Assembly: GCA_022843545.1 (NCBI GenBank) | Contig: JALHNL010000002.1 | Location: 47,992-111,991, forward strand | Direction: 5' to 3' | DNA length: 64,000 nt | Origin: Phycisphaerales bacterium | GTDB taxonomy: Bacteria; Planctomycetota; Phycisphaerae; Phycisphaerales; UBA1924 | Shown here: positions 1,494-37,903 of the stretch, in pieces | How positions within the stretch are numbered: position 1 is the stretch's first letter | Layout of the letters: each line of letters opens with the position of its first letter | The notes under the pieces: model-generated | Database searches by the model: none | The model's input: only the letters and a program-made list of their open reading frames with translations | What the model was told of the DNA's origin: nothing | Program-made: the position numbers and the translations under genes

Positions 1494-3719
1494 TCACTTC
1501 ATCTCGTCGGGCATCCACTCCGGCAGGTCGGCGATGGACCGGTGGGCCTCCTCGCTCGTGGGCACGCCCCACTTCTGGAAGAACGGCCCCAGGTTGCGCC
1601 CCGCGGCGCGGCTGAACCTCACCATCCACTGGTCGCGTTCCTGCTGCTCGCCGCGAGGCCGCTGATTCTGGGGCAGAGCGCGATACTCGGCGAACACCTT
1701 CTTGTACGTTTCCCAGCCGAACGCTTCCTGCAACTGCATGTACATCTCGAGCGCCAGGAACGGGTCGGACTTCCACTTCTCGAACGGCGCGCCCGCGGCC
1801 ATGTGCGTGCGCATCTTCTCAACGCGCTGCGAGCGGTCGTTCACCGCGTCGTGGCCCGTGCGCGGCGGTTTGCCGCAGACGGTCTCGGAGACGTACAGCG
1901 AGAAGAGGTTGCAGGTGACCTCGACCGTGCCGCTGAAGGTCCACATCGCGTCCTGATGGTTGTGCCCCATCTCGTGGAAGAGCCCCCAGTTGCCCGAGGC
2001 CAGTTTGGCCGCGATGACCATGTCGTCGGCGGCATCCAGGTGGGTCATGATGGGGTAGCCCGCGTGCATGTAGCCCGCGGAGATCTGCACATCGGCGACG
2101 TAGCGCTCGGGCCGCGCTCGCTCGCGCGGCATGGCCGCCAGATCGGCGCAGGCGTCCATCACGCGGTCCCAGAGTTCCAGCACGGGGCGAGGGTCGTCGA
2201 TATCCCGGACGTGCTCGCTGGGCACGGTCACGATGACCTTGGACGTGGCGAACTCAGCCCAGGGGCCCGGCGCGTTGCGAAGCCGGCTTCGCCACTCCGC
2301 GGGGTCGGTCTTTCCGAGCACGAAGAGCGGCGCCTCCACCGCGCCCTCAATGCGAACACTCACCTCGCCCTTCGACGGCTTCTCCACGCACACATACACC
2401 AGCCCGCCGAAGGGCGACGCGATCTCCATCTCCTCGTCGCCCGCGCCGGCGGTGACCTCCATCGGCCGACTCAGGGTAATCTCGGGCACACGGCTCCACG
2501 AGTCCTTGTGCCACAGGCGATCGGTGTGACTGCCGATCTGAACCCGCGCTGTGCCGGGCTTGATCGCGCCCCCCGCCGGCCAGGTCAGCCGCACCACCTC
2601 GCCCGGCGCGGCGTACAGCCCCAGGCTGTGCCAGCCCGGTGTGGACAGACTGATCGTGCGCTCCGCGGTGATGCGCGGGGCCTGGCTCGGGACCGCGCCC
2701 GGAAACTCCGCCGCTCGCGGGTCAGCCGCCACCTCAACCGGGGCGAGCGACGCCATGGACTCCACGGCGTACGTCACCAAAGCCCGCTCCGCCGGGCGGT
2801 TTGCCCGCAGCGGGGACTTGGCGCTGATCTTCACCGCGCTTAGCCGATCGCGCACCAGCCCGTCCAGCCGCGTGCGATAGACCATGTCGTCGGGCGGCAA
2901 GAGCCGCGTGCCCATCGCCACCGTAACGCCGGCCTGCGGATCGCGCGTGGCGCTGGCCTGTTCCTGCCCGGCGGGAGGAAACAGCGCATCCATCGCGCGG
3001 TCAAAGCGGAGCAACGCTCCCGGCGTTTCGGTCGCGTCAAATCGCTCGGGCAACTGCGGCGCAACGAAATCGTCCGTCCACGCGATCCCCGCTTCACGCA
3101 GCAGGATGCTCGGCTCATGCGTGCGCATGTCGGCCCCGCCGTTGATCTGCTGCCAACCCCACCCCGTCTGCGCGATGATCAGCCCGCCGCCCTCCTTCAC
3201 GAACTTCGCCACGCGCTCTCGAACGTCCGGGGGCATGGACGAACGCGCGGAGACCACCACGTCCACGCCGCTGAGGTCGGGCCACTTCGCCCCGGCCGCG
3301 CGGGCATCGCCATCATGCTGGTTCAGCCACTCGTGCGCGCGAGAGTCCACCGTCAGCACGCGCGGAGGCCGAATCCCCGCGCTGGCGCTGACTTTGACCG
3401 CCCCCGCCCACGCCACGGCGTTCAGAAGCAACCGCCCGGTGTCGCCCTGATCGAGCGTCGCCGGGTCGAGGTAGCCGCTGTGCCCCAGCGCCACCACTCG
3501 CCCGCGCCCCCAGGTGGAGGCGACCACCACCGCCGCCTTTGCGCTCCCGTCCATCTTGCCCACCACCACGGCCTCAGCCGGCGAAGCCAGCGCGATGACC
3601 GCACCGGGCGAGCCCGGCGCGGCGATCTGCTTCACACCCGCGAGCAGAGCCTCTCGCGGCTCGGCGGGCGGGGCGACGGTGAACACACAGACGACACACG
3701 CGGCGAGATAAGCGAGCAT
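1494..3719 (-). CDS. Peptidase M60-like (enhancin/TCAF-like) zinc metallopeptidase with N-terminal amidotransferase-like domain
   Basis: 741 aa with a short signal-like N-terminus. Has the HEMGHNHQ zincin motif typical of M60-like peptidases (HExxHxxQ). The N-terminal half has a GGGLIIAQTGWGWQQ segment like TCAF-type proteins. Confidence 0.7.
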   Translation of the reverse strand: MLAYLAACVVCVFTVAPPAEPREALLAGVKQIAAPGSPGAVIALASPAEAVVVGKMDGSAKAAVVVASTWGRGRVVALGHSGYLDPATLDQGDTGRLLLNAVAWAGAVKVSASAGIRPPRVLTVDSRAHEWLNQHDGDARAAGAKWPDLSGVDVVVSARSSMPPDVRERVAKFVKEGGGLIIAQTGWGWQQINGGADMRTHEPSILLREAGIAWTDDFVAPQLPERFDATETPGALLRFDRAMDALFPPAGQEQASATRDPQAGVTVAMGTRLLPPDDMVYRTRLDGLVRDRLSAVKISAKSPLRANRPAERALVTYAVESMASLAPVEVAADPRAAEFPGAVPSQAPRITAERTISLSTPGWHSLGLYAAPGEVVRLTWPAGGAIKPGTARVQIGSHTDRLWHKDSWSRVPEITLSRPMEVTAGAGDEEMEIASPFGGLVYVCVEKPSKGEVSVRIEGAVEAPLFVLGKTDPAEWRSRLRNAPGPWAEFATSKVIVTVPSEHVRDIDDPRPVLELWDRVMDACADLAAMPRERARPERYVADVQISAGYMHAGYPIMTHLDAADDMVIAAKLASGNWGLFHEMGHNHQDAMWTFSGTVEVTCNLFSLYVSETVCGKPPRTGHDAVNDRSQRVEKMRTHMAAGAPFEKWKSDPFLALEMYMQLQEAFGWETYKKVFAEYRALPQNQRPRGEQQERDQWMVRFSRAAGRNLGPFFQKWGVPTSEEAHRSIADLPEWMPDEMK

Positions 3720-3760: not shown

Positions 3761-5752
3761 TCACATCCCCGGCAGGTGCTTCTCGACCCAGTCGTCCTGA
3801 CGGAGCGTCTCGGCGCGGAGTCGGCGGTCGCGGTTCTGGCTTGCGCCCTGGGCGAAGGCGAACAGCCTCAGCGTGGCCGCCCGCTTCCAGCCCGCGAGTT
3901 CGCCCGGCTCGTTGCAGGTCTTTTTGAGCGACGCAGCCGCGGTCTTGGCGTAGAGCGCCAGCAGCTCGTCCTCGAGGCTCAGGAACATCTGGGCCGAGCC
4001 GGGGTCACCCTGCCGCCCGGCGCGCCCGATGAACTGCCGATCAACACGTTTGGCGGCGTGCATCTCGGTGAGAATGACGTGAAGCCCGCCGGCCTGCCGC
4101 GCGTCTTTGTCCAGCTTGATGTCGGTCCCGCGGCCGGCCATGTTGGTGGCGACCACGATCCCCCCCGAGTGCCCGGCCTGCGCGATGATGCCGGCCTCGT
4201 CCTTGTCGAAGTTGGCGTTGAGGACCTTGTGGGGTAGCCGCCGGGCGGTCAGCCGCTCAGCCAGCGTCTGCGAGGCCTCGATGCTGCGCGTGCCGGCGAG
4301 GATCGGTCGCCCCTGCGCGTGCAGCGCGGCGACGCTCTCGGCGACCGCGTCCCACTTGGCGGCGGCGGACCCGAAGGCGCGGACGGGCCACGTCTCGCGG
4401 ATGACCGGGCGGTTGGTGGGGATCACCGTCACGCGGCGCTGGTACGTCTTCTCCATCTCCAGCGTCGCGTCGGCCGCGGTGCCGGTCATGCCGCACATCA
4501 CCGGATAGCTGCGGAAGAACCGCTGGAAGGACATGCGGGCGATGGTCTCGCGGTCGGCGGTGATCTCCAGCCCTTCCTTGGCCTCCACCGCCTGGTGCAG
4601 CCCGTGCTCCCACGAGCGGTCCGGGAGGAACCGGCCGGTGAACTCATCGACGATGACCACCCGCCCGTCGACGATCTGGTACTGCCGACCGTGGTGATAG
4701 CACGTGAGCGCGATGACGGCCTGGCGCACCAGTTCCTCGGCGCGACGAGTGGCCCGCCAGATCGGGTCCGCCCGCTGGACGAACATCGCGGCGCACTTGG
4801 CGCGGCCGGCGCGGGTGAGTTCCGCCTGCTTGCGGAGGGCGTCGACCGTGACGTCGGTGCGGACCTTCAGCTCGCGCGCCATGGCGGCGGCGTCGCGGTA
4901 GATCGCCGCCATCTCGTCGCTCTTGCGGCTCTGGGCGATAATCAGCGGCACCACCGCCTCGTCGATGAGCACCGCGTCGGCCTCGTCCACCATCGCGGCC
5001 CGCAGCCCCGGCACGATTGGCCCCTGGCTGGCGACGCCCTCGCCCCCCAGCATCCGCAGACCGCCCCACGCGCTGCGCAGCGCGCCCAGGCGGATCTGGT
5101 CGCGGAGCCAGTCCGCGACGATCTGCTTGGGCGTGCCGTAGACGATGGGGAGGGCGTAGACGCGAGCGCGCAGCGCGTGCTCCTGCTCCTGCTGGATCGC
5201 GCCCACCTGCAGCATGCAGCGCTCGTAAATGCCGCGTCGGCTGTCGGCGTCGCGCTTGGCGAGATAGTCATTGACGGTGAGGACGTGCAGGTGGCGATGC
5301 TCCCAGGCCAGGAGCGGGGCGGCGATGGAGCCGGTCAGCGTCTTGCCCTCGCCGGTCAGCATTTCGACGATGCGCCCGCGGTACAGGGCCATCGCCGCCA
5401 TGAGCTGCACGACGTACGCCTCTTCCCCGATCTCGCGCCGCGCGTGTTCACGCGTGATGGCCAGCGCCGCGCGGACCACGGCGTCGTCCTGCCGCCCGCG
5501 CAGGAAGGTCTCGCGCACCTCGGCCGTTCGGTCGGCAAGGGCCGCCTCGCCCAGCGACCGCAGACCCGGCGACAGTTCACGGTCGATGGCCTCCGCCTGC
5601 TTGCGGAGCCACGAGAGCGTGTAGCGACCCGTGCGCACCCTCACGCCCAGCCACGCGGCGAGCTTGTCGAGCCCCTTGAGCGGCAGCGGCTTCTTCTGCC
5701 GCGAACGCAACGACTCGAAGAGCGTCGCGTAGTTGGTCAGGGCCTGGCTCAC
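3761..5752 (-). CDS. SecA-like ATPase, truncated (NBD1-PPXD-NBD2 only; no HWD, two-helix finger or C-terminal tail)
   Basis: 663 aa. SecA signature blocks present: EMLTGEGKTL (Walker A), HVLTVNDYLAKRD, MVDEADAVLIDEAVVPLII, TNMAGRGTDIKL, GRAGRQGDPGS. Only 77 aa follow the last block. The GTG start overlaps the stop of the upstream M50 gene (GTGA). Confidence 0.85.
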   Translation of the reverse strand: MSQALTNYATLFESLRSRQKKPLPLKGLDKLAAWLGVRVRTGRYTLSWLRKQAEAIDRELSPGLRSLGEAALADRTAEVRETFLRGRQDDAVVRAALAITREHARREIGEEAYVVQLMAAMALYRGRIVEMLTGEGKTLTGSIAAPLLAWEHRHLHVLTVNDYLAKRDADSRRGIYERCMLQVGAIQQEQEHALRARVYALPIVYGTPKQIVADWLRDQIRLGALRSAWGGLRMLGGEGVASQGPIVPGLRAAMVDEADAVLIDEAVVPLIIAQSRKSDEMAAIYRDAAAMARELKVRTDVTVDALRKQAELTRAGRAKCAAMFVQRADPIWRATRRAEELVRQAVIALTCYHHGRQYQIVDGRVVIVDEFTGRFLPDRSWEHGLHQAVEAKEGLEITADRETIARMSFQRFFRSYPVMCGMTGTAADATLEMEKTYQRRVTVIPTNRPVIRETWPVRAFGSAAAKWDAVAESVAALHAQGRPILAGTRSIEASQTLAERLTARRLPHKVLNANFDKDEAGIIAQAGHSGGIVVATNMAGRGTDIKLDKDARQAGGLHVILTEMHAAKRVDRQFIGRAGRQGDPGSAQMFLSLEDELLALYAKTAAASLKKTCNEPGELAGWKRAATLRLFAFAQGASQNRDRRLRAETLRQDDWVEKHLPGM

Positions 5753-7941
5753 AGCGTGACCTTCCCTTGAACCGCCTTCTGCAGCATCTCCACCGCCTGG
5801 TGCAGGATCGGGCGGCTGGGCAGCGTGAAGCGGATGTAGACGCGCTGGCCCAGCGCCGCATCCGCAAGCTGCGCCGGATCGACATCCACATAGATCGTGA
5901 ACAGATCGGTGGTCGCGACGCGGTGCGAGCGGTCGTCGGGCATCGTGGCGATCTGCCCGCCGCCGGCGTGGCCCAGCGCCGCGTGCGGGAGGATCCGCTG
6001 CCCCGCGGGGATGGCCCGAAGCCCCGTGGCCTCGATCACCTGGTGCACACGCGACACCAACCGGGCCTGCACGCGGTACTCATCCGGGCTCATCTGGAAC
6101 AGCCAGCCCGAGTCGCCCTGGGGCACGCTCGCCGTGATGCGCCGCTGAGAGAGATCCGCCACCTGGCACACCGGCTCACCCGTGCGCTGGAACGCCCCCA
6201 GGAGGTCTCGCGGATTGGCGCCCACGATGGTCCCGTCGTGCGGCGCTCTCACCACCAGAGCCGCCTCGCGCCGCGCGATGTCGCTGAGCTGCTCCTCCAG
6301 CGCGGCAATCCCGCTCTGCGCCACCGCCGCGCCCGCCGGGTCGTCCTTCGAGAACGCCTCGGCGAGCTTGAGCCTGGCATCAGCGATGGAGGCGATAACG
6401 AACTGCCGCTCCGCGGAGAGTTCCGGGCTCGAGAGCGTGAGGATCGGCTCGTCCTTCTTCACGCTCTGCCCGAGGCGGACATGGACGTCGGAAACGAACC
6501 CGTCGGTGCCCTGGAAGACGCCGGTGATGAGCGGGCTGTCCACCACGCCCACGACGCGCCGGTAATCGGGCACGGGCACCAGCCCGATCAGAGCCGCCCC
6601 GACGGCCGCCAGACCCAGCGTGCCCAGGATCGCTCGGGTGCGATACTCGAGCAGTTGCGGGCTGGTGGCCAGCCAGTGGACGAACTTGCCGATGGGCAGG
6701 ATGAACCACATGGCCGCGGTCCACAGCGCCAGGAAGAGCCCGACGAAGAAGAAGATGCCCAGCACATACAGCGTGATGACGACGAACAGGAAGATGCGGT
6801 AGATCAGCGCCAGCACGCCGTAGGTGATCAGGATCGCCACCTCCCCCGGCTGGTTGCTGGGCGGGCGGGCCTGCTTGATGCGGTAGAAGTAGCGCTGGAA
6901 CAGATGCTGCAGCATCTTGTTGGAGCGCATCATGAGGTTGGGCACCTCGATGAGGTCCGAAAGGATGTAGTACCCGTCGAACCGCATGAGCGGGTTGGCG
7001 TTGAACACCACCGTGCTGATGCCCGAGGTGAGCATGACGTAGTACGAGATCTGCTTGGCGAACGAGCCGTCGGGCGAGGCCAGCCACACCAGCGCCGCGA
7101 TCGAGGCGGCGAACAGCTCGAACATCATGCCGCCCGCGCCCACCGCCACACGCTGCCACTTGTTCGGGAACGACCAGCAACTGGAAGCGTCCACGAAAGG
7201 CGAAGGGATGAGCACCAGCAGCATCGCGCCGAACTCGGGCACCTGCCCGCCGAAGCGGTGGCAGATGACGCCGTGCCCGGTCTCGTGCCAGAGTTTGAGC
7301 AGGATGTAGACCAGGATCATCCAGCCCCAGTTGGAGGGGCTGGTGACCGAGTCAAACTGCCCGACCAGGCGCGGCCACTCGGGGATGATCTGGACGAGCG
7401 CGAAGATCAACAGCCCCAGCCACGCCAGGAAGCCCCAGCGGTTGAGCACCGGCCGCAAGATCGGCTCGATGAAGTTCAGGATCGGCGTGGGGTTGAAGAG
7501 CCGCAGCTTGAAGTACATCAGGCCGATGGCCTGCTGCATCACACGCTTCCTCACGCGCTCACGCCCGCGGGTGAGCAGCTGCTCGGTCTCCGGCGAGGCA
7601 TCAGCCGACAGCAGGTTGCTGTTGTAGAGCTGCCCGAGCAGTTCGATGACCTCGTTCTGCGTGGGGGCCATGTCGCCGAACTTGGAAAGGCTGATCTTCC
7701 AGGCTTCCTCAACGGTGCGCGCGCCGTCGAGCAGCCCGATGAGGTCGTAGGCGATGGGCGAGAGGCGGTAGAACTGGTTGCTGGTCGGGTCGTGCGCGAC
7801 ATGCCAGCGCCGCCCGCGGTAGTGCTGCCGGGTGATCTGCACGTGCGGGCGAAGCCGGGGCTTCATCGCGCGGACACGGTGCCAGAACGGGCTGAAGGTG
7901 GGGCGTTCCATGAGAAAGAGAAGGCACTCGGCAGCGGGCAA
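5749..7941 (-). CDS. M50 (site-2 protease family) intramembrane metalloprotease with PqqD/RRE-like N-terminal module and HlyD-like C-terminal periplasmic module
   Basis: 730-aa ORF (alternative start at 7911, MERPTF). Has HETGH plus NANPLMRFDG, the M50 HExxH and NxxPxxxxDG motifs, and multiple TM helices. N-terminal FYRLSPIAYDLIGLLDGARTVEEAWKISLSKFGDMAPTQNEVIELLGQLYNSNLL resembles PqqD-family peptide-binding domains. The C-terminal approx 270 aa look like a barrel-sandwich plus coiled-coil adaptor. Confidence 0.8.
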   Translation of the reverse strand: MPAAECLLFLMERPTFSPFWHRVRAMKPRLRPHVQITRQHYRGRRWHVAHDPTSNQFYRLSPIAYDLIGLLDGARTVEEAWKISLSKFGDMAPTQNEVIELLGQLYNSNLLSADASPETEQLLTRGRERVRKRVMQQAIGLMYFKLRLFNPTPILNFIEPILRPVLNRWGFLAWLGLLIFALVQIIPEWPRLVGQFDSVTSPSNWGWMILVYILLKLWHETGHGVICHRFGGQVPEFGAMLLVLIPSPFVDASSCWSFPNKWQRVAVGAGGMMFELFAASIAALVWLASPDGSFAKQISYYVMLTSGISTVVFNANPLMRFDGYYILSDLIEVPNLMMRSNKMLQHLFQRYFYRIKQARPPSNQPGEVAILITYGVLALIYRIFLFVVITLYVLGIFFFVGLFLALWTAAMWFILPIGKFVHWLATSPQLLEYRTRAILGTLGLAAVGAALIGLVPVPDYRRVVGVVDSPLITGVFQGTDGFVSDVHVRLGQSVKKDEPILTLSSPELSAERQFVIASIADARLKLAEAFSKDDPAGAAVAQSGIAALEEQLSDIARREAALVVRAPHDGTIVGANPRDLLGAFQRTGEPVCQVADLSQRRITASVPQGDSGWLFQMSPDEYRVQARLVSRVHQVIEATGLRAIPAGQRILPHAALGHAGGGQIATMPDDRSHRVATTDLFTIYVDVDPAQLADAALGQRVYIRFTLPSRPILHQAVEMLQKAVQGKVTL

Positions 7942-7968
7942 TGGGCATCAGGTGAGAGACGCGGGACT

Positions 7969-7989
7969 CGGCCATCGGCCATCGCAGAA
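7969..7989. repeat. Heptamer tandem array CGGCCAT x2 followed by CGCAGAA
   Basis: Plus strand reads cggccatcggccatcgcagaa, 27 nt upstream (in transcript sense) of the M50 ORF start. About 20 of 24 positions match the element at 28812-28835 by my hand comparison. Confidence 0.8.
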
Positions 7990-8024
7990 AGGAAGAGATC
8001 GGGGACCACTCCGACGCGGGCGGG

Positions 8025-9983
8025 TCACCACAACCACAGACGAACAGTGTCGATGATCCTCCGCGTCCCGATCTCCAGGAGCGTGCGGCGGCCGGTGTCG
8101 AGGCTGACGCGGCCTTCCATGCCTGGGCGCATCCACGCGGCGGATTCATCGAGCTTGACGCGCACCTCGAAGAGGTTCTTGCCGTCCTTTGCCTCCGCGA
8201 GCGGCACGATCCGCTCGATGGTGACGGGGAACTCGGTGCCGGGGTGGCTGCGGGTCACGATCGCGCCCCTGCCGCCCTCCTTGATGAGGGCGACGTCGCT
8301 CTCATCCACGCGGACGACCGCGATCATCTCGGCGAGCGGCGCGATTTCGAAGAGCCCTTCGCCCAGCTTCACCGTCGAGCCCACGCGGTTCTTCAGGTCG
8401 CCCGAGATCAGCGTGCCGCCGATGGGCGCGACGATCTTCGTCCGCTCCAGCCGCGACTCCAGCAGCGCCAGCCGGGCGCGGGCCTGCTCGATCTGGGCCT
8501 CGGCCTTCTTGGCCTCGCCCGTGTTCTGCTGGGCGCGGGCCGTGTCCAGCGTCTTCTGCGCCACCAGCATCTGCGAGCGCGACTCCTCAGCCTGCAGGCG
8601 CAGTTCGCTGTCATCCAGTTCCGCGAGCAGCTGCCCGGCCTGGATCGACGCCCCGGGCTCGATGCCCGGCATCACCTTCTTGATCACCCCGTCAAAGGGC
8701 ATGGAGAGGGCCCGCTTCTCGCGGGGGCGCAGTTCGGCCCCGGCGCCGATGCGGTACTCCGCGGAGAAGACCGTCACGATGATCATCGCGACGATGAGCG
8801 CGACACCCGCCAGCTTCCACGCCGTGTGCTTCGGGCCCACCAGCCACGCCCCGGTCCACATCATCGAGTCCCACACCCGCAGCGGCAGGATGCGGTCGTC
8901 GGACCGGCGCACCCGCATCACGGGCGACACCAGGTCCATCGTCGCCTGCAGCAGTTCGACGGTCTTGAGGTCCACCCCCGGCGAGTCGGGCGTGGCGCGC
9001 GATTCGATGGTGATCACGCCCAGCACGTCCTCGCCCACGCGCATCGGGATCGAGCACACGTGCAGGTTCTTCTCGCCCGACGCCAGTTCCTTGTGCGCGT
9101 GGCTGATCGCTTGCGACAGCAGCACGTCCTGATCCGCCGGCGGCACCGGATGCACCACCGCCTGGTCCTGGTCCAGGCACTCGTCCATCGCCGCCTGCAT
9201 CTTCTGCACCATCGTCATCCGGCGGTCAAAGTGCTCGGTGTCGCTGATGGCCATGACGCGGACGCTGTTGCCCCTCAGCCAGCCCATCGCGACGCGGTCG
9301 GCGCCCAGGGTCTTGGCCAGGTCGTTCACGGTCTGGATCGCCGCGCCCTTGAACCCCTGCGCGGAGTTGATCGCGCCGATGAGCCGCGTGGCCAGGTCCA
9401 GCGCCCGCGTGCTCTGGGTGTTGCGCTTGAGTTCCTGACGCACCGCGTGCGTGTGCACGTAGCCCGCGATCACCTCCGCCATCGCCAGCGTGCTCTGGAT
9501 CGCCTGGCGCGAGCGCGGCTCGACCAGCAGCGTGATCGCGCCCGCGCTGCGCCCGCCCTCGCCCGGCAGCGCCAGCGAGAGCACATACCCCGCCCCGCTC
9601 GCCCCGTCGTACAGCTCGCTGGCGTCCTCCATCGCAAAGACGTGCGACGATGAACTCTCGAGCGCCGCCAGCGCGGCCCGCTTCACCTCGGGCAGGCTCT
9701 GGATCTGCGCCACGTCGGCCGGCCCGGGCGCCACGCCCGCCGCGGGCGGCGCCCCTACCGCTCCAGCGGGGAACATCGCGATGGGCATCGCCTCGCCCTC
9801 GCCGCCCTGACCGCCGCCCGAGGCGCTGATCGGGACGAAGAGCACCGCCTGGCGCGCGGCGGACACCAGCGTGAGGATCCGCAGCAGCCGGTCCATGAAC
9901 ACGCGGTCGTCGGGCGCGGAACTGGTGAGTTCCGCCACCACGCGCTGCCAGCCCGCCGCCTTCAGATGAGTCGCGTCAATCAC
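8025..9983 (-). CDS. GAF-like (tandem) - TM - HlyD-type membrane-fusion adaptor fusion protein
   Basis: 652 aa. The N-terminal approx 390 aa are cytoplasmic with GAF-like segments (LAKTLGADRVAMGWLRGNSVRVMAISD...VCSIPMRVGEDVLGVITIESRA). One TM helix (WKLAGVALIVAMIIVTVF) follows. Then a lipoyl-like, coiled-coil and beta-barrel pattern (IQAGQLLAELDDSELRLQ...IVAPIGGTLISGDL). Confidence 0.7.
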   Translation of the reverse strand: MIDATHLKAAGWQRVVAELTSSAPDDRVFMDRLLRILTLVSAARQAVLFVPISASGGGQGGEGEAMPIAMFPAGAVGAPPAAGVAPGPADVAQIQSLPEVKRAALAALESSSSHVFAMEDASELYDGASGAGYVLSLALPGEGGRSAGAITLLVEPRSRQAIQSTLAMAEVIAGYVHTHAVRQELKRNTQSTRALDLATRLIGAINSAQGFKGAAIQTVNDLAKTLGADRVAMGWLRGNSVRVMAISDTEHFDRRMTMVQKMQAAMDECLDQDQAVVHPVPPADQDVLLSQAISHAHKELASGEKNLHVCSIPMRVGEDVLGVITIESRATPDSPGVDLKTVELLQATMDLVSPVMRVRRSDDRILPLRVWDSMMWTGAWLVGPKHTAWKLAGVALIVAMIIVTVFSAEYRIGAGAELRPREKRALSMPFDGVIKKVMPGIEPGASIQAGQLLAELDDSELRLQAEESRSQMLVAQKTLDTARAQQNTGEAKKAEAQIEQARARLALLESRLERTKIVAPIGGTLISGDLKNRVGSTVKLGEGLFEIAPLAEMIAVVRVDESDVALIKEGGRGAIVTRSHPGTEFPVTIERIVPLAEAKDGKNLFEVRVKLDESAAWMRPGMEGRVSLDTGRRTLLEIGTRRIIDTVRLWLW

Positions 9984-10047: not shown

Positions 10048-11052
10048 TCACTTCGCCGCCGCCGCGCTCTTGGGCGATTCGCCCTCGACCGGGGGCGAAA
10101 AGCGGACCCGCACCCGCACGCCCGCGGGCCACTCGCGCGGGTTGGGAGCCTCCACACGCACGCGCCGGCTGCCGCTGGTGTCCACCACGCGCGACACGTC
10201 CAGCACCTTCCCCTTCACCACCGCGTCGCTCTCGGGCGCGCCCGGCGCGTCGAACAGCACCCATGCCGAGTCGCCCGCCTTCAGCCCGCGGATCAGCGTC
10301 TCGTCCGTCGGCGTCGGCACGTCGATCCACACCGGATCGATGCTCACCACGCGCACCACCGGGCCCGCCTGCTCAAAGGCCTGCCCCACTTCGCACGCCA
10401 CCGCCTCCACCACGCCGTCAAACGGCGCTTCCAGCCGGTAGCGCTCCAGTTGCTTCTCGAGCTGAACCAGCCGCGCGGCCTCTTCCTTCATGTCGGACTT
10501 GGCGTTCGCCACCGCGGCCTCGGAGCTCTTCACCTGCGCCACGCGCTCGTCGATCTCCGACTGGTTCAGCGCGTCCTTCGCGAACGCCTCCTGCCCCGTG
10601 CGCAGCCGGATCCTCGCCAGTTCCAGCGACGCCTCCGCGTTCTTCACCGGCGCATCGTTCACCGAGCGAACACGCTGAACCTCGATGCTCGCCACCACCT
10701 CCGCGTCGCGACCGCGGATGAGCAGCTCGCCGCGCTTCACCCGCTGCCCCCCCACCACGCGCACCTCCTGGACCTCCATCGGGATGGTGAAGCCCATGAT
10801 GGCGTCTCGGCTCGGACGCGACACCCACTCAAAGCCCCCGAACGCACGCGCCTTGGACTCCCAGTCCTTGCTCGGCGGGATCGGAACAATCTGCGGGCTC
10901 AGAGCGGGGGCCGCGCCGGCGTAGCCGGGGGCCGACTCGCTCGACGCCGCCGGGCCGGGCTGCGCGATCGCCATCGCCCCCAGCGCCAGCCACGAACACA
11001 CGATGATCCACCCCGCTCGGGGTCCAGGCATTCGTCCGGTCATAGTCCGCAT
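10048..11052 (-). CDS. HlyD/RND-type periplasmic adaptor (membrane fusion protein)
   Basis: The ORF runs to 11235, but the plausible start is ATG 11052 (MRTMTGRMPGPRAGWIIVCSWLALGAMAIAQ signal-anchor). Has a lipoyl-like motif (VKRGELLIRGRDAEV), a coiled coil and a beta-barrel C-terminus. Confidence 0.7.
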   Translation of the reverse strand: MRTMTGRMPGPRAGWIIVCSWLALGAMAIAQPGPAASSESAPGYAGAAPALSPQIVPIPPSKDWESKARAFGGFEWVSRPSRDAIMGFTIPMEVQEVRVVGGQRVKRGELLIRGRDAEVVASIEVQRVRSVNDAPVKNAEASLELARIRLRTGQEAFAKDALNQSEIDERVAQVKSSEAAVANAKSDMKEEAARLVQLEKQLERYRLEAPFDGVVEAVACEVGQAFEQAGPVVRVVSIDPVWIDVPTPTDETLIRGLKAGDSAWVLFDAPGAPESDAVVKGKVLDVSRVVDTSGSRRVRVEAPNPREWPAGVRVRVRFSPPVEGESPKSAAAAK

Positions 11053-11256: not shown

Positions 11257-12453
11257 ATGACGACCACTGCCACCAACCCGACCTCTTCCCGAACCCTGGC
11301 CATGAACGGCGGCACGCCCGTGAGCGCGACGCCCGTGCCCTTCATGCTCCCCGGGCTGGCCGAGGCGGACATCGAGGCGGCGGTGAAGGTCTTGAAGTCA
11401 GGCATGCTCCGCGCGGCCAAGAAGTGCGAGGAGCTCGAGACCCGCATGGGCCAGCTCTCCGGCGCCAAGCACGCCATGACCTGCGCCAACGGCACCTGCG
11501 CCCTCCAACTCGCCTATGAGCCGCTCCTGCAGCCCGGCGACGACGTGCTCGTCCCCGCCTGGTCCTACATCGCCACCGTCAGCATGATCGTCGCACGCGG
11601 GTGCAACCCCATCTTCGTCGACGCCGACCCCAAGACCGGCCAGATCGACCTCACCGACGCCGCCGGTCGCGTCACCGAGAACACCAAGGGCATCGCCGCG
11701 ACGCACATGTACGGCTGCCCCGTGGACATCGACGGCGTGCAGAGCCTCGCCCGCAGCCACGGCCTGAAGGTGATCTACGACGCGGCCCAGGCCCACCTCG
11801 CCACCTGGAAGGGCCAGGGCATCGGCGCGTTCGGCGACGCCGTCACGTATTCCTTCTACGCCACCAAGAACCTGCCCACCGGCGAGGGCGGGATGGTCAC
11901 CTGCAACAACGACGCGCTGGCACGCCAGATCAAGCTCCTGCGCAGCCACGGTGAAACCGAGAAGTACCTGCACGAGCAGGTCGGTTACAACTATCGCCTC
12001 AACGACATCGCCGGCGCGCTGGGCTGCTCGCGGCTCGACCGCCTGCAGAAGGAAACCGACGCGCGGCGCGCCGCCGCGGCCCGATACGGGCAACTGCTCG
12101 CGAACGTCAAGGGCATCACGCCGCTGGGCGTCACCCCCGGCGCGGTCAGCGCGTATCACCTGTACACGGTGACCTTCGACCCCAAGCAGTTCCGCTGCAC
12201 CCGCGACGAGTTCTGCAAGGCCCTGAACGCCGAGGGCGTGCCCACCGCCCTGCACTACCCGCGCTCGCTCCCGCAGCAGCCCGCCTTCGCCCGCTTCATC
12301 GACAACCAAAGGAACTCCTTCGGCGGCTGGCCCGTCGCAGAGCGCCTCGCGAGCACCGTTTTCAGCCTCCCCATGCACCACGGCCTCTCCGAGGCCCACT
12401 TCGCGGTCATGGCCGAAGCGATCGACAAGGTGGCAGCGGCCTACCGGGCCTGA
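11257..12453 (+). CDS. DegT/DnrJ/EryC1/StrS-family PLP-dependent sugar aminotransferase
   Basis: 398 aa. Family-typical blocks: AxTCANGTCALQLA, GDDVLVPAWSYIATV and YSFYATKNLPTGEGGMV (PLP lysine). Confidence 0.85.
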   Translation: MTTTATNPTSSRTLAMNGGTPVSATPVPFMLPGLAEADIEAAVKVLKSGMLRAAKKCEELETRMGQLSGAKHAMTCANGTCALQLAYEPLLQPGDDVLVPAWSYIATVSMIVARGCNPIFVDADPKTGQIDLTDAAGRVTENTKGIAATHMYGCPVDIDGVQSLARSHGLKVIYDAAQAHLATWKGQGIGAFGDAVTYSFYATKNLPTGEGGMVTCNNDALARQIKLLRSHGETEKYLHEQVGYNYRLNDIAGALGCSRLDRLQKETDARRAAAARYGQLLANVKGITPLGVTPGAVSAYHLYTVTFDPKQFRCTRDEFCKALNAEGVPTALHYPRSLPQQPAFARFIDNQRNSFGGWPVAERLASTVFSLPMHHGLSEAHFAVMAEAIDKVAAAYRA

Positions 12454-15849: not shown

Positions 15850-16434
15850 ATGGCCTCACCGCCCTCCCCACTTCCGCCCTCGGTGCCGCCGCTGGTCATC
15901 CTCGCCGGTCCGCGCGGCAGCGGCAAGACCCAGGTGGCCGGCCTCCTCTCCGCCGCCCTCGCGCGCCCGTTCATCGACCTCGATGACCGCACCGCCGCCA
16001 CGGCGGGCTTCGCCGCCTGCGCCGATGCCCTGCGCACCTTGGGCGAGCCCCGGTTCCGCGCCGCCGAGTGCGATGCGCTGCGGGCCGTGCTGGCACGCCA
16101 GCTCCCCGCCGGCGCGGTGCTCGCCCTGGGCGGCGGCACGCCCACCTACGCACCGTCGCTCGAACTGCTGCAGGCCGCCCGCGCCCGGTCGCGCGCCGCG
16201 GTGGTCTATCTCCAGGCCTCCGCCGGCGCGCTGCGCGCCCGGCTCAGCGCCACCGATCTCTCCGCCCGCCCGCCGCTGATGGGCGCCGACCCGCTCTCGG
16301 AGATCGAGCAGCTGCTCGCCGCCCGCGAGCCGGTGTACCGCGCCGTCGCCGATCTGGTGCTCAGCACCGAGTCGCTGACGCCGCAGACCGCCGCCGACCA
16401 CATCACAGCATGGCTGCGCCGGGGTCGGGCCTGA
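15850..16434 (+). CDS. aroK: Shikimate kinase
   Basis: 194 aa with Walker A GPRGSGKT, FIDLDD, and LALGGGTP. Confidence 0.8.
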   Translation: MASPPSPLPPSVPPLVILAGPRGSGKTQVAGLLSAALARPFIDLDDRTAATAGFAACADALRTLGEPRFRAAECDALRAVLARQLPAGAVLALGGGTPTYAPSLELLQAARARSRAAVVYLQASAGALRARLSATDLSARPPLMGADPLSEIEQLLAAREPVYRAVADLVLSTESLTPQTAADHITAWLRRGRA

Positions 16435-17581
16435 CGCGATCCAGTTCCGCCTTGAGTTCGTCGAAGAGCGCCAAGTCATCCGCCGCGCTCAGGCGCGTCC
16501 GCAGCCCGCTCAGCATGCCCGCCGCCCGCTCCGGCTGGTTGAACTCCCGCAGGCAGACCATCGCCACCAGCAATCGCACCTGCCGGGCTTCGGGTTCGTC
16601 CCGATACACCTTCGCGAATCGCTCATACGCCAGCACCCCCAGCACACGCTCCCCCGTGGCCATCAGGTGCGTCGCCAATTCGAGCTGAGCCTTCCGCGGC
16701 AGCGTCGTCGCCGCGTCCGCGCCCGCGTGCGCCGCGACCAGTTCCGCATACAGCCTCGCCGCGCCCGCCAGGTCGCGGGCCGCCACACGCTCGCTGATCG
16801 CCGCCCGCCTGAGGGCGATGTCGTTCAGAGCCTGCTCATCCACCGGCGAGACCCGCCTCGACGCCGCCGCGCGCTCACCCTCAGCCACGCTCGCGCGGAA
16901 GGCGCTCTTGCGCCGCCACCGCTCGAACATCGACAACACGTCAAACGGGCTCCGCGGCAACAGGCGCAGCCAGAGCAGCACCAGCGCCGACACGATCCCC
17001 ACGCCATAGCCGCCCAGGTGGGCCCAGGTGGCGATGTTCCCGGCCAGCGCGTGCCCCGGCCCGCTGAGGTACAGGTCCTTCGCGATGTACAGCCCGATCA
17101 GAACCCACGCCGGGATGGGCACCGTCGCCAACGGCACCATCAGTCGCACCGTGGGCCACAGGATCAGGAAAGCCCCGGCCACCGCCGCGATCGCCCCCGA
17201 GGCCCCCACCGCCGGCGCGCCGGTCATCCCGATGTGAGCCAGCGCCGCCCCCACCGCGCCGCACACATACAGCAGCCCGAACCCGATTCGACCCAGCCTC
17301 GCCTCCACCAAGGGTCCGAAAACCATGAGCCCCAGCATGTTGAAGATGAGGTGCATCCACCCCGCATGGATCAGGGCGTGGCTCAGGAGCGTCCACCACC
17401 GCCCCCCCGAAGGGTCCAGCGCCAGTTGCATCGCCGCCGGGCTCGCCCATGGGGGGAACCCCGGCGGGGCCTGACCCGACCACAGGAGCTGCCAGAAAAA
17501 CACCAGCACCGTCAGCGCGATGATCCCCCCGGTCACCACCGGCGGGCTGTGCGATCGGTCGGTGGTTGGGAAGATGGGCAT
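16403..17581 (-). CDS. Rhomboid-family intramembrane serine protease with C-terminal helical (TPR-like) domain
   Basis: 392 aa with HAGWMHLIFNMLGL, GASGAIAAVAGAF (catalytic Ser) and HLGGYGVG (catalytic His). The C-terminal approx 170 aa are soluble and helical. Confidence 0.8.
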   Translation of the reverse strand: MPIFPTTDRSHSPPVVTGGIIALTVLVFFWQLLWSGQAPPGFPPWASPAAMQLALDPSGGRWWTLLSHALIHAGWMHLIFNMLGLMVFGPLVEARLGRIGFGLLYVCGAVGAALAHIGMTGAPAVGASGAIAAVAGAFLILWPTVRLMVPLATVPIPAWVLIGLYIAKDLYLSGPGHALAGNIATWAHLGGYGVGIVSALVLLWLRLLPRSPFDVLSMFERWRRKSAFRASVAEGERAAASRRVSPVDEQALNDIALRRAAISERVAARDLAGAARLYAELVAAHAGADAATTLPRKAQLELATHLMATGERVLGVLAYERFAKVYRDEPEARQVRLLVAMVCLREFNQPERAAGMLSGLRTRLSAADDLALFDELKAELDRVRPDPGAAML

Positions 17582-21256: not shown

Positions 21257-24124
<2,868 letters not shown>

Positions 24125-24127
<3 letters not shown>

Positions 24128-30532: not shown

Positions 30533-31534
30533 TTACTTGGTGAGGCTCACGCCCTCGGGGAGGGACATGCCCAGCTGGAGGTTGAGGTCCTCGAGCTTCT
30601 TCTTGACCTCGCGGAGCGAGGTGCGGCCGAAGGAGCGGACCTTGAGCAGATCCGACTCGGTGCGCGTGACCAGGTCGGCGACGGTGACGATGCGGGCCGA
30701 CTCCAGGCAGTTGCTGGCGCGGACCGAGAGGTCCATGTCGGTGATCGGCATGTTGAGCTTGCGGATGAGCTCTTCGTCGACGCTGGCGGCGGCGGCGGCC
30801 TCCTGCGAGACGCGGTCCTGGCCCAGCTCGAAGTACTGCAGGAAGACGTTGAGGTGCTTGCGGAGGATCTTGGCGGCCTCGACCAGCGCCATCTCGGGCG
30901 TGATCGTGCCGTTGGTCCAGATCTCCATGATGAGCTTGTCGTAGTTGGTCTTCTGGCCGACGCGGGTCTCTTCGACGAAGTAGCGCACGCGCTGGACGGG
31001 GCTGAAGGCGGCGTCGAGCGGGATGACGCCGATCTCCTGCTCCTCACCCTTGTTGTAGCGCTCGGCGGCGGGGACGTAGCCGCGGCCCTTCTCGACCTTC
31101 ATCTCCATCTCGAAGTCCACCTTGTCGGTGAGCGTCGCGAGGACCAGGTCCTTGTTGATGATGCTGACGGCCGGGTCGGCCTCGACCATGTCGCAGGCGA
31201 CCTCGCCCGGGCCGCGGCAGAGCAGCTTGATGGTCTTGGCCTCGTCGCCCTCGAGCTTGACGATCATGCTCTTGACGTTGAGGATGATGTCCGTCACATC
31301 CTCGAGCACGCCGGGGACCGTGCTGAACTCGTGCTGCACGCCCTTGATCTTGACGCTGGTGAGCGCCGCGCCCTCGAGCGACGAGAGCAGGATCCGCCGG
31401 AGACTGTTGCCCACGGTGGTGCCCATGCCGCGCTCGAAGGGCTCGATCGCGAAGCGACCGAACGTGCCCGACTTGAAGCGGGGATCGGCGGAAATCTTGG
31501 ACGGAAGTTCCAGACCGCGCCAGCGAATGCGCAT
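30533..31534 (-). CDS. rpoA: DNA-directed RNA polymerase subunit alpha
   Basis: 333 aa with FAIEPFERGMGTTVGNSLRRILLSSLEGAA plus a C-terminal domain (DLSVRASNCLESARI). Confidence 0.95.
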   Translation of the reverse strand: MRIRWRGLELPSKISADPRFKSGTFGRFAIEPFERGMGTTVGNSLRRILLSSLEGAALTSVKIKGVQHEFSTVPGVLEDVTDIILNVKSMIVKLEGDEAKTIKLLCRGPGEVACDMVEADPAVSIINKDLVLATLTDKVDFEMEMKVEKGRGYVPAAERYNKGEEQEIGVIPLDAAFSPVQRVRYFVEETRVGQKTNYDKLIMEIWTNGTITPEMALVEAAKILRKHLNVFLQYFELGQDRVSQEAAAAASVDEELIRKLNMPITDMDLSVRASNCLESARIVTVADLVTRTESDLLKVRSFGRTSLREVKKKLEDLNLQLGMSLPEGVSLTK

Positions 31535-31659
31535 GATGTACCCTCACATGTGCGGCGTGCCAGGGTGAGCAAGCCCGACCGGGTATCGAGAAGCGACCAG
31601 GAACGCCGCGGTCCTGGGGGTCTCTGCTGTCCGGGGGCGGGGACGACCAGAAAGCGAAA

Positions 31660-32037
31660 TCAGACGCGGCGGCGCTTGGTGGGGCGGCAGCCGTTGTGCG
31701 GGACCGGGGTGTGGTCCTCGATGGCGGTGACGCGCATGCCGGTGGAGACCAGCCCGTTGACGGCGGCCTCGCGGCCGGCGCCGGCGCCCTTGATGCGGAC
31801 CTCGAGCTCCGAGACGCCCAGCTTGCGGGCCTTCTGGCCGCACTCTTCGCCCGCGCGGGTGGCGGCGAAGGGCGTGCTCTTGCGGGTGCCCTTGAAGCCG
31901 ATGGTGCCGGCGGAGGCCCAGGCGAGGGCCTCGCCGTTCATGTCGGTGATGGTGACCATCGTGTTGTTGTTGCTCGCCTTGATATGGGCGATGCCACGCA
32001 CGACGTTCTTGCGGACTTTCTTGACCTTCTTCGACAT
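31660..32037 (-). CDS. rpsK: 30S ribosomal protein S11
   Basis: Reads [45 protein letters not shown]. Confidence 0.95.
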
Positions 32038-32142
32038 AGGTGGCTCGGCTGGAGGCTGGGGACTTGAGGCGAAAGACGGGGGGCGTGAGACCGAAGACGC
32101 GGGGCGGGGCGGGTCGCTGAGCCGGAGACCGGCTCAGGCGGC

Positions 32143-32520
32143 TTAGCCCTTGACGCCCTTCTTGCCGGCGACGGTCTTGCGCTTGCCCTTGCGGGTGCGG
32201 CTGTTGGACCGGGTGCGCTGACCGCGGACGGGGAGGCCCTTGCGGTGGCGCTCGCCGCGATAGGCGCGGATGTCCTTGAGGCGCTGGATGTTCTGGCTGA
32301 CCTGGCGACGCAGGGCGCCCTCGACGAGGAAGCCCGCGTCGATGATCGCGTTGATGCGGGCGAGGGCCTGCTCGTCCACCTGGCCGGCGCGCAGGTCGGG
32401 GTTGACCTCGGCCTGGGCGAGGATGTCCTTGGCGAACTTGGCCCCGATGCCGTGGATGTACTGCATCGCGAAGAGGATCTTCTTCTTCTCGGGCACGTCG
32501 ATACCGGCGATACGCGGCAT
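32143..32520 (-). CDS. rpsM: 30S ribosomal protein S13
   Basis: Reads MPRIAGIDVPEKKKILFAMQYIHGIG... Confidence 0.95.
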   Translation of the reverse strand: MPRIAGIDVPEKKKILFAMQYIHGIGAKFAKDILAQAEVNPDLRAGQVDEQALARINAIIDAGFLVEGALRRQVSQNIQRLKDIRAYRGERHRKGLPVRGQRTRSNSRTRKGKRKTVAGKKGVKG

Positions 32521-32567
32521 GGCTTTCCTCGTTCACGGGCCCCGATTGGGCCCGGCTTGGTGCTTGA

Positions 32568-32684
32568 TCAGCCCTGGACCTGCTTGTGCTTGGGATCGGC
32601 CTTGCAGATCACGCGGACCTTGTTCTTGCGGCGGACGATCTGGCAGTCCTTGCACATTCTCTTGACGCTGGCTCGAACCTTCAC
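32568..32684 (-). CDS. rpmJ: 50S ribosomal protein L36
   Basis: Not in the ORF track because it is under 60 aa. GTG start; my translation is [38 protein letters not shown]. The Cys/Cys/Cys/His zinc ligands are present. Confidence 0.9.
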
Positions 32685-32772
32685 GGGACGCCCTTTCGCA
32701 GAAATCCGGGTGAACAACCCGGGTCGAGATAATAGGCCGGGAGTAAGGGAAAGAGAAGTGCGGGAATGCCGG

Positions 32773-32994
32773 TCAGTGACGGAAGGTGATTCGGGCTTTG
32801 GTCAGGTCGTAGGGGGACATCTCGACGGTGACGCGGTCGCCGGGGAGGATGCGGATGTAGTTCATCCGCATCTTGCCGCTGACGTAGCCCAGGACGGTGA
32901 CGTTGTTGGGGAGCTTGACGCGGAACATGGCGTTGGGCAGGGCCTCAACCACCTCGGCTTCCATCGTCAGTTTGTCGGAGTCGGCTTTGGCCAT
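32773..32994 (-). CDS. infA: Translation initiation factor IF-1
   Basis: Reads [61 protein letters not shown]. Confidence 0.95.
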
Positions 32995-33015
32995 AAGGGG
33001 ATCAGATGTGCGGGG

Positions 33016-34401: not shown

Positions 34402-34550
34402 GGACAGGGGGTCCTACCGCGGGCCGTTCCGGGCGATTCGCGGGGGGAGAGTCTAGGCGAACGGGGATGGGGTGGTAGAAGGTGAAGGATGAAGACGAAG
34501 GCCCGACTCAAGGAGCCGGGGCACCCACACGACCCGGGGAACACCCCGGA

Positions 34551-35186: not shown

Positions 35187-35227
35187 GGCGGGGACTCGGG
35201 AAGAAGGGACAGGGAACTGGGAAGACC

Positions 35228-35259
35228 GGTGTCGAGGTGACGGGGTGACGAGGTGTCGA
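35228..35259. repeat. Octamer array GGTGWCGR x4
   Basis: Reads ggtgtcga ggtgacgg ggtgacga ggtgtcga. It is the inverted partner of the array at 35283-35330. Confidence 0.85.
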
Positions 35260-35282
35260 GAACTGGCGATGCTGGAGGCTAC

Positions 35283-35330: not shown

Positions 35331-35336
35331 TTCGGA

Positions 35337-36505: not shown

Positions 36506-36514
36506 GGTTGTCTC

Positions 36515-37882: not shown

Positions 37883-37903
37883 AAGAGTCTCGTGTGTGCG
37901 TGG

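Follow-up and report, generated by a model that had tools for sequence, protein, structure and literature searches.

An RRE-M50-adaptor fusion protein in the SecA-paralog cassette of a Phycisphaerales bacterium and its candidate role in protein export

We analyzed a 64,000-nucleotide stretch of contig JALHNL010000002.1 from a Phycisphaerales bacterium, referred to here as the window, and within it one minus-strand gene at positions 5749 to 7911. The predicted product, a protein of 720 residues, joins three modules in a single chain: a PqqD-like RiPP recognition element (RRE; RiPP, a peptide made by ribosomes and modified after translation), an M50 membrane domain of the site-2-protease type, and a periplasmic adaptor domain like those of HlyD and MexA. 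We are highly confident of this identity and of the membership of the gene in the "secondary SecA" cassette described by Kamneva, Poudel, and Ward in 2015. Below, we set out the evidence for the three modules and for the cassette, and we propose a mechanism in which the fusion protein would recognize, cleave, and export proteins bearing a short N-terminal leader.

Architecture and topology of the fusion protein

The sequence-only reading of this DNA had placed the gene at positions 5749 to 7941, where an open reading frame (ORF) does exist on the minus strand, opening upstream at an in-frame TTG at 7941. However, all homologues begin with MERPTFSPFW or MDRPTFS, and a metagenome protein that is 98% identical to the window protein (P0001) is exactly 720 residues long. 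Therefore, we assigned the start to the ATG at 7911, with the stop codon at 5749 to 5751, and judged the TTG to be an in-frame artifact. Because numbering now begins at this ATG, the region previously described as residues 33 to 112 corresponds to residues 23 to 102. The G+C content of the region is approximately 68 to 70%, and the G+C content at third codon positions of the frame is 0.92, as in the window's real genes.

Conservation was assessed in two alignments with identities of 30 to 98%, one of 20 diverse homologues (A1) and one of 45 (A2). The 20 diverse homologues align colinearly with the window protein, as do nearly all of the best 150 homologues, which are approximately 715 residues long. 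In a library clustered at 50% identity, the family numbered 12,491 representatives at an E-value of ≤1e-3 and 4,038 at ≤1e-30; by these counts, the RRE-M50-adaptor fusion is a very large family and not an isolated oddity. Its members carry the NCBI labels "PqqD family peptide modification chaperone," "site-2 protease family protein," and "biotin/lipoyl-binding protein" and the JGI label "putative peptide zinc metalloprotease protein."

The N-terminal module is a winged-helix domain, predicted to be cytoplasmic, at residues 18 to 101 (positions 7609 to 7860, minus strand). Pfam PqqD (PF05402) matched residues 37 to 101 with 27.8 bits and an E-value of 3e-6 (gathering score, 23.4); the N-terminal domain alone scored 31.1 bits, and the same profile was matched by 16 of 19 diverse family members, with a best E-value of 2.4e-9. 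An AlphaFold2 model of residues 1 to 150, built from 45 sequences, had a predicted local distance difference test (pLDDT) score above 90 across residues 11 to 100 and consisted of strands at residues 25 to 31, 34 to 41, and 46 to 50, followed by helices at residues 52 to 60, 67 to 81, and 85 to 97. We compared folds because RREs are too divergent for a search of PDB sequences. Foldseek against the PDB matched the domain to leader-bound structures of the lasso-peptide RREs TbiB1 (5v1u and 5v1v) and TfuB1 (6jx3), with target-normalized template-modeling scores of 0.70 to 0.75, root mean square deviations of 2.8 to 4.0 Å, and probabilities of about 1.0. The cyanobactin heterocyclase LynD (4v1t) was also among the matches. 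E-values to the RREs were 0.015 to 0.09. The claim that the chain begins with an RRE was thus borne out by a profile score above threshold and by a confidently modeled β3-α3 fold, and the structural matches of the N-terminal region agree with it.

In solved RRE-leader complexes, the leader peptide lies in a groove formed by strand 3 and helix 3. The residues of the domain that are invariant in A2 are R28, R32, G33, R49 (strand 3), W71, and Q85, L91, and Q94 (helix 3); those on the groove side, namely, R49, Q85, L91, and Q94, are retained in homologues of 30 to 98% identity. These observations suggest that the RRE may bind the leader peptide of a substrate.

The second module is a seven-helix membrane domain of the M50, or site-2-protease, type at residues 158 to 444 (positions 6580 to 7440, minus strand), delimited by AlphaFold2, NCBIfam, and the charge distribution. 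The full-length AlphaFold2 model (mean pLDDT, 86) places transmembrane (TM) helices at residues 158 to 184, 192 to 219, 251 to 278, 284 to 304, 355 to 386, 388 to 416, and 424 to 444. The zinc-binding and catalytic HExxH motif, H209-E-T-G-H213 (positions 7273 to 7287), sits in the helix from 192 to 219 (TM2), close to the cytoplasmic end. The second M50 motif, N304-A-N-P-L-M-R-F-D312-G313 (positions 6973 to 7002), carries the Asp that is the third zinc ligand. Residues H209, E210, H213, N304, N306, P307, L308, and D312 were invariant in both alignments, and G313 was invariant in A2 only. On the Pfam M50 profile (PF02163), the window protein scored 21.8 bits, below the gathering score of 27.2, and a precomputed match to this profile is present on many homologues; judged by these profiles, the window protein belongs to a divergent branch of M50.

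Topology was predicted from the AlphaFold2 helices and the positive-inside rule. The loops bearing lysine or arginine, together with the adjoining basic residues at helix ends, all lie on the side of the N-terminal segment, which itself has 23 lysines or arginines, and the three short loops of the opposite side have none. Therefore, the model places the N terminus inside and the C terminus outside, with a cytoplasmic RRE and a periplasmic adaptor, as the earlier reading had supposed.

The third module (residues 445 to 720; positions 5752 to 6579, minus strand) is a membrane fusion protein domain of the HlyD/MexA-like type, comprising β-barrel, lipoyl, and α-hairpin subdomains, with the hairpin helices at residues 496 to 521 and 525 to 550. 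It scored 43.1 bits on Pfam HlyD_D23 (gathering score, 30) and 34.6 bits on HlyD_3, and Foldseek aligned approximately 260 to 290 columns with MexA, MacA, and AcrA at E-values of 7e-12 to 1e-9. A search of PDB sequences with the whole protein returned MacA only (4dk1), an adaptor match by sequence at the C terminus. Together, the Pfam, NCBIfam, AlphaFold2, and Foldseek results show that the three-module architecture, read initially from the DNA letters, is real.

The SecA-paralog cassette

The fusion gene is the third of four codirectional and closely spaced minus-strand genes, which encode, in order, an HlyD protein, a GAF-HlyD protein, the fusion protein, and a truncated SecA paralog. The start of the SecA paralog gene (663 residues; positions 3761 to 5752) overlaps the stop of the fusion gene by 4 nucleotides. 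The paralog matched Pfam SecA_DEAD, SecA_PP_bind (the preprotein cross-linking domain), and P-loop_SecA and has an intact Walker A motif, GEGKT, at residue 134 and an intact VDEAD motif at residue 255. The Pfam scan found no match to SecA_SW, the wing and scaffold domain; alignment to solved SecA stops at approximately residue 550 to 610 of 780 to 840, and the paralog scores far below every SecA and SecA2 equivalog cutoff of NCBIfam.

The second gene of the cassette (positions 8025 to 9983) encodes a protein of 652 residues that, by Pfam and NCBIfam, comprises a cytoplasmic GAF domain (residues 217 to 353), a TM helix (389 to 408), and a periplasmic membrane fusion protein domain (409 to 640). 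The first gene (positions 10048 to 11052) encodes a small membrane-anchored adaptor of the HlyD/resistance-nodulation-division (RND) type, which matched Pfam HlyD_D23 and HlyD_3 and scored 90 bits on RND_mfp, just below the cutoff of 94.9 bits. Although its ORF reaches 11235, the ATG at 11052 (beginning MRTMTGRM) is the probable start, because the tblastn alignments of homologues begin at approximately residue 80 to 130 of the long ORF.

By tblastn across 42 Phycisphaerae loci, all four cassette genes were found in most. Clustering of ORFs from 127 fetched loci and the window recovered the fusion gene 101 times, GAF-HlyD 88 times, the SecA paralog 75 times, and HlyD 54 times; most absences trace to truncated contigs or ORF-calling failures, and the order GAF-HlyD, fusion, SecA paralog is nearly invariant wherever the contig extends. 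A scan of genome contigs with the window protein gave Phycisphaerae only, and the more distant gene contexts come from metagenome contigs, many of them short. Flanking genes vary between loci, except for a clade-specific divergent gene for a DegT/DnrJ/EryC1-type aminotransferase (window positions 11257 to 12453, plus strand), which is kept in approximately 24 of the 42 Phycisphaerae loci and is not found outside the clade.

TolC-like genes for outer-membrane efflux proteins (OEPs) lie within or beside the cassette in approximately 10 loci outside Phycisphaerae, and no ABC transporter gene was identified in the window cassette or in the conserved neighbor clusters of related loci. In 15 of 80 metagenome loci (L054, L055, L061, L065, L069, L072, L075, L078, L084, L098, L105, L108, L112, L117, and L122), a gene of approximately 120 codons encoding a DUF3467 protein (PF11950; for instance, L065:7268-7642) lies beside the cassette, directly upstream of the GAF-HlyD gene wherever gene order is visible; it was not found in the window or the Phycisphaerae loci. 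Its product, whose fold is probably SecB-like, may be a chaperone-like accessory.

Some loci depart from the common arrangement. In a divergent Phycisphaerae subgroup with 40 to 42% identity (L032, L037, and L043), no SecA paralog follows the fusion gene. These loci encode a protein of 2,075 to 2,119 residues that is hydrophobic at both its N- and C-terminal segments and matches no Pfam profile (L032:8133-14492, L037:15844-22071, and L043:12429-18788). Its gene lies directly downstream of the fusion gene in L032 and L043 and approximately 3.7 kb downstream in L037. In a locus from Verrucomicrobia, a PIN-domain gene and a 60-residue ORF on the opposite strand (L045:9196-9793), probably a toxin-antitoxin pair, stand between the GAF-HlyD and fusion genes.

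Site-2 proteases classically act in signaling. Accordingly, the M50 domain might cut a membrane-anchored regulator in response to a GAF or periplasmic signal, as in the regulated intramembrane proteolysis carried out by RseP and SpoIVFB, and the cassette would then be a signaling device and not a transporter. The GAF sensor domain, which is always present, would suit such a role, as would genes for sigma factors of the extracytoplasmic function type a few kilobases upstream in two loci (L002 and L045). However, sigma genes are not conserved neighbors, and the cassette has neither a PDZ domain nor an anti-sigma partner. Known pathways of this kind also make no use of three periplasmic adaptor-fold domains, a motor of the SecA type, or TolC-like genes. 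We regard a signaling function as very improbable.

Candidate substrates and a proposed export mechanism

The sequence-only reading had linked the fusion to peptide maturation, and we searched for short precursor genes beside the cassette. No short precursor or RiPP-modifying gene was conserved beside it in the 127 loci. When ORFs of 30 to 150 residues lying no more than 3 kb from the cassette were clustered across the fetched loci, only out-of-frame shadows of the DegT and SecA genes emerged, and the intergenic gaps of the 42 Phycisphaerae loci held only sporadic genes for PF05635-like four-helix-bundle proteins (L002:9633-9923, L006:3694-4167, L007:9565-9810, L009:4981-5376 and 7584-8012, L021:9565-9927, and L038:12240-12602). 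The latter are of the "23S rRNA intervening sequence protein" type; the L002 gene has a weak PF05635 match, the rest are alike by eye, and their position is not conserved.

These results bear on the possibility that the protein recognizes, cleaves, and exports a small peptide encoded elsewhere, as MpaP or YydH/EpeP would in classical RiPP maturation. The RRE is above its Pfam threshold, and M50 proteases are known as RiPP leader peptidases (PMC10885120). The best NCBIfam match of the window protein, the daptide protease profile daptide_HExxH (NF041824), gave 166.1 bits and an E-value of 1.3e-48 over residues 18 to 403 (362 of 379 profile positions), spanning both the RRE and the M50 domain. 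However, the equivalog cutoff of that profile is 300 bits, so that the window protein is homologous and not an equivalog, and the YydH/LiaK profile (NF058609; cutoff, 225 bits) gave only 30.3 bits and an E-value of 3e-7 over residues 190 to 338 of the M50 core. Across the 127 loci, moreover, no modifying enzyme (radical SAM, YcaO, dehydrogenase, or an aminotransferase and methyltransferase set) accompanies the cassette, and the divergent DegT-type aminotransferase is conserved within Phycisphaerae only. The conserved partners are instead the SecA paralog, the adaptors, and TolC-like genes, and some neighbors encode proteins far larger than a RiPP precursor. We therefore consider maturation of a small peptide to be improbable. 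It is more likely that the fusion protein processes exported proteins, because TolC-like factors, repeats-in-toxin (RTX) giants, and giants with an N-terminal LEPR-XLL motif adjoin the cassette in other phyla. Of the earlier proposal that one chain couples recognition, cleavage, and export, the coupling itself is very likely, but the small-RiPP substrate is not matched by any precursor or modifying gene.

The giant neighbors, encoded in some loci, range in length from 1,200 to more than 2,900 residues. We counted those on the same strand in lower-GC loci that had passed a Pfam or NCBIfam check; the "giant" ORFs called antisense in high-GC loci (clusters 4, 6, and 7) were rejected as spurious output of the greedy ORF caller. 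One group shares the strand of the GAF-HlyD gene, lies directly upstream of it, and was confirmed as RTX by HemolysinCabind matches in three loci (L046:1-7786, L083:1-8703, and L104:251-6385). The L104 protein, of 2,044 residues, combines HemolysinCabind repeats (eight matched stretches) with a P-domain and a metalloprotease. Related giants, putatively RTX as well, are encoded at this position in L073, L099, L112, and L117.

The giants encoded directly after the SecA paralog share the N-terminal motif F-x-L-E-x-L-E-P-R-x-L-L-S-A-D (for example, FRLEALEPRLLLSADG), which corresponds to the 24-residue "LEPR-XLL domain" of NCBIfam (NF012209; cutoff, 17 bits). The cassette-flanking genes scored 38.4 bits in L063, 31.5 in L120, 31.1 in L109, 28.7 in L100, and 24.7 in L090, with borderline scores of 16.1 in L106 and 12.9 in L055. 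A LEPR-XLL gene thus adjoins the cassette in five to seven loci, and every bona fide instance across the fetched loci, 1.69 Mb in total, adjoins it with at most one small called ORF between. The bare pattern LE.R.[LMVI][LMF] was not significant alone, since 5 of its 12 locus matches were unrelated internal ones; instances were counted if they were N-terminal and confirmed with NF012209. In 26 non-Phycisphaerae loci, the sequence continues for 1.5 kb or more past the SecA paralog; there, the next gene encodes a LEPR-XLL giant in 4 (5 or 6 if L055 and L063 are included), an OEP in 4, and an HlyD protein in 4.

Within the window, the candidate substrate is a subtilase (Peptidase_S8 and Big_9 by Pfam; positions 49369 to 51102, minus strand) with no obvious Sec signal peptide. 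The LEPR-XLL-like peptide at its N terminus (PPEAFEALEPRALLAVAS) includes the putative leader motif FEALEPRALLA (positions 51025 to 51057, minus strand), the sole match to the bare pattern in all six frames of the window. The motif occurs in the first 90 residues of 39 of 120 subtilase homologues, mainly from Phycisphaerae and other Planctomycetes, and the four homologues that were tested (P0397, P0400, P0426, and P0503) scored 20.4 to 32.5 bits on NF012209. From these data we infer that the subtilase may be a substrate of the cassette.

Two published observations touch on the motif. The daptide leader motif ELExMEAP, in which L(-7) and M(-4) are essential (PMC10036551), has the core L-E-x-[L/M]-E in common with LEALEPR, a likeness that is suggestive only. 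A 2026 preprint on Chlorochromatium reports LEPRxLL N termini on two proteins of Chlorobium chlorochromatii, Cag_663 (36,806 residues) and Cag_665 (20,647 residues). Both flank a TolC and are said to "lack known signals for transport"; they are expressed together with Cag_1676, a secA gained by horizontal transfer. Cag_1676 may be the SecA paralog of the locus that Kamneva et al. list for one Chlorobi species.

We propose that the four cassette proteins could together make a type-1-like export machine with the fusion protein as its core in the inner membrane, and that in other phyla a TolC-like outer-membrane factor would be added. The cytoplasmic RRE would capture a short N-terminal leader of the substrate, for which LEPR-XLL is the best candidate, and the M50 active site at the cytoplasmic end of TM2 would cut the leader off. 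The SecA paralog, which lacks the wing and scaffold part that canonical SecA uses with SecYEG, may provide an ATP-driven push in place of the ABC transporter of a type 1 secretion system (T1SS). The three adaptor domains would build the periplasmic conduit, and the GAF domain may gate or regulate the machine. The analysis shows which domains are present, how they fold and lie across the membrane, that the catalytic residues and the operon are conserved, and that LEPR-XLL and RTX giants adjoin the cassette in other loci; leader binding by the RRE, leader cleavage by the M50 domain, and the motor role of the SecA paralog are inferred. For the mechanism as a whole, we see an even chance that it is correct. 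At present, the LEPR-XLL domain is no more than a label in the annotation of giant and secreted proteins with "no known transport signal." The more specific proposal, that LEPR-XLL is the leader of a distinct, SecA-paralog-powered and TolC-dependent pathway in which it is read by the RRE and removed by the M50 domain before the protein is exported from N to C terminus through a three-adaptor conduit, is tentative and on balance doubtful. This substrate hypothesis appears to be unpublished in the literature searched.

The RTX giants that L046, L083, and L104 encode directly upstream of the cassette, with related giants in L073, L099, and L112, invite a different account. Here the RRE would do no more than dock the SecA paralog or the GAF domain or play a structural part, the M50 domain would serve mainly as the membrane channel, the substrates would be RTX proteins with C-terminal signals, and LEPR-XLL would be incidental. 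Winged-helix domains are often protein-protein modules, the best structural match of the RRE domain is not a RiPP protein, and the M50 domain has already been proposed to act as a pore (PMC4452313). However, the catalytic residues of the HExxH and NxxPxxxxDG motifs do not vary within the family, an argument that protease activity has been kept; the invariant residues of the winged helix gather on strand 3 and helix 3; and LEPR-XLL genes are immediate neighbors of the cassette in five to seven independent loci. We consider this account unlikely.

A number of observations weigh against the mechanism that we propose. With respect to the RRE, the Foldseek E-values are modest, the best Foldseek match is GdmN, a non-RiPP carbamoyltransferase, and a sequence profile of the domain retrieved no RRE from PDB sequences. 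With respect to the giants, the upstream proteins in L046, L073, L083, L099, L112, and L117 have N termini lost at the contig end, the L104 giant has no LEPR-XLL motif, and the upstream giants may use C-terminal signals. A LEPR-XLL neighbor was found in only 4 to 6 of the 26 non-Phycisphaerae loci with enough downstream sequence, and no LEPR-XLL or OEP gene adjoins the cassette in the window or in approximately 40 Phycisphaerae loci. The 25 larger window ORFs that were scanned include no OEP gene, which could be encoded elsewhere in the genome. The N terminus of the window subtilase scored 13.7 to 14.1 bits on NF012209, below the cutoff; its motif lies 41 kb from the cassette, and by our own estimate a match to the bare pattern is expected about one to two times by chance in 64 kb. 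The likeness to the daptide leader is confined to a 5-residue motif and could be coincidence, and the daptide leader mutagenesis was read out via the RRE of MpaB and not that of the protease (PMC10036551). Finally, literature searches found no experimental test of the Kamneva cassette.

In itself, the gene is an ordinary representative of a cassette known bioinformatically since 2015 and recognized by annotation pipelines. What is new here is the verification of fold and topology, the placement of the gene in that cassette, and the LEPR-XLL substrate hypothesis. If the proposed mechanism holds, a very large orphan family, which exceeds 4,000 clusters at 50% identity, would gain a function, and the RRE domain, linked until now to RiPP biosynthesis, would have a part in protein secretion as well. 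The mechanism would also explain the export route of LEPR-XLL giants, including the Chlorochromatium symbiosis proteins of 20,000 to 36,000 residues, and would make the motif a searchable signal for predicting the secretomes of Planctomycetes and Verrucomicrobia. The result would be a protein secretion system of a new type, distributed over Planctomycetota, Verrucomicrobiota, Latescibacterota, and, following Kamneva et al., Proteobacteria, Nitrospirae, and Chlorobi.

Other genes of the window were annotated alongside the cassette. A metallopeptidase of the M60-like (enhancin) type, which has a ThuA/DUF4350-like region at its N terminus (positions 1494 to 3719, minus strand), is encoded 42 nucleotides downstream of the SecA paralog and on its strand. 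We considered it as a dedicated substrate but discarded it as a conserved partner, as it stands beside the cassette in no related locus. An XDD4-family exosortase-dependent surface protein (positions 58933 to 59868, minus strand; 216 bits) has a PEP-CTERM/MYXO-CTERM-like tail, which implies an exosortase sorting system in the genome. A housekeeping block at 30533 to 44448 holds RpoA (30533 to 31534), SecY (33016 to 34401), and approximately 19 further ORFs, mostly small and on the minus strand, and the run up to 44448 is probably a ribosomal-protein operon. The canonical SecY gene is therefore approximately 25 kb from the SecA paralog, and genes for a rhomboid protease (16403 to 17581) and an H+-pyrophosphatase (21257 to 24127) lie between the two.

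Comparison with known systems

By its gene content, the window cassette is the locus described by Kamneva, Poudel, and Ward (PLoS One, 2015; PMC4452313), a conserved "secondary SecA_DEAD" locus with T1SS-related proteins. Both consist of a SecA_DEAD protein without the wing and scaffold domain and of Peptidase_M50/HlyD, GAF/HlyD, and HlyD/biotin-lipoyl proteins, with an OEP sometimes near. The reported distribution in Planctomycetes, Verrucomicrobia, and other phyla fits the present family; it includes Proteobacteria, Nitrospirae, and Chlorobi (one Chlorobi species is listed), and Phycisphaerae are not mentioned. The genes META1p2399-2402 of Methylobacterium extorquens AM1 are among the carriers that the paper names. 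Those authors proposed a T1SS-like machine in which SecA takes the place of the ABC ATPase and M50 serves as the pore, and they called the biological role of the locus "completely unknown." Their paper contains no occurrence of PqqD or RRE and names no substrate class, whereas the RRE is recognized here. Literature searches returned no paper joining an RRE, an M50 protease, and HlyD, and none for the combination of a SecA-like protein, a membrane fusion protein, a site-2 protease, and RTX.

Judged by profile scores, the closest characterized relative of the fusion protein is the RRE-site-2-protease MpaP of the daptide pathway, to which Ren et al. (2023; PMC10036551) assigned leader removal. 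The two proteins share an RRE followed by an M50 domain in the same order and, presumably, leader binding and removal. However, MpaP has no C-terminal adaptor domain, and the daptide cluster, with its precursors and MpaB, MpaC, MpaD, and MpaM, is replaced here by a SecA paralog and adaptors: no Thr-terminated precursor, MpaB DUF-RRE protein, decarboxylase, aminotransferase, or methyltransferase of the daptide type was found in the scanned window genes or the related loci. The precedent cited in the sequence-only reading was instead YydH of Bacillus subtilis. YydH/EpeP, of the LiaK family, is an intramembrane metalloprotease of the M50 type with a presumed role in the cleavage and export of a RiPP (PMC10885120), and its profile does match the M50 core of the window protein weakly. 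That match stops short of the RRE and adaptor regions, and the radical-SAM epimerase and ABC genes are not present here; YydH is thus a distant parallel, and MpaP is much closer over both the RRE and the M50 domain.

The peptidase-containing ABC transporters that export bacteriocins, with their C39 leader peptidase domain, share with the fusion protein the concept of a leader-cleaving domain fused to an exporter. Classical T1SS and tripartite efflux systems (HlyB-HlyD-TolC and MacAB-TolC) have the adaptor fold in common with the cassette, and TolC-like and RTX neighbors occur in other loci. In contrast to those systems, the cassette has no ABC, RND, or major facilitator superfamily transporter, and a SecA-type motor is the presumed energy source. 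In addition, an adaptor is fused to the M50 membrane domain, the cassette has three different adaptor proteins, and the candidate signal is N-terminal and not C-terminal. The accessory SecA2 systems of Gram-positive bacteria and mycobacteria likewise employ a second SecA-family ATPase for a subset of substrates, and Clostridioides difficile SecA2 (6t4h) aligns with the SecA paralog over residues 60 to 657. However, SecA2 keeps much of the scaffold and works with SecY or SecY2, whereas the paralog described here is encoded in an operon with adaptors and an M50 protein and not with SecY2 or Asp proteins.

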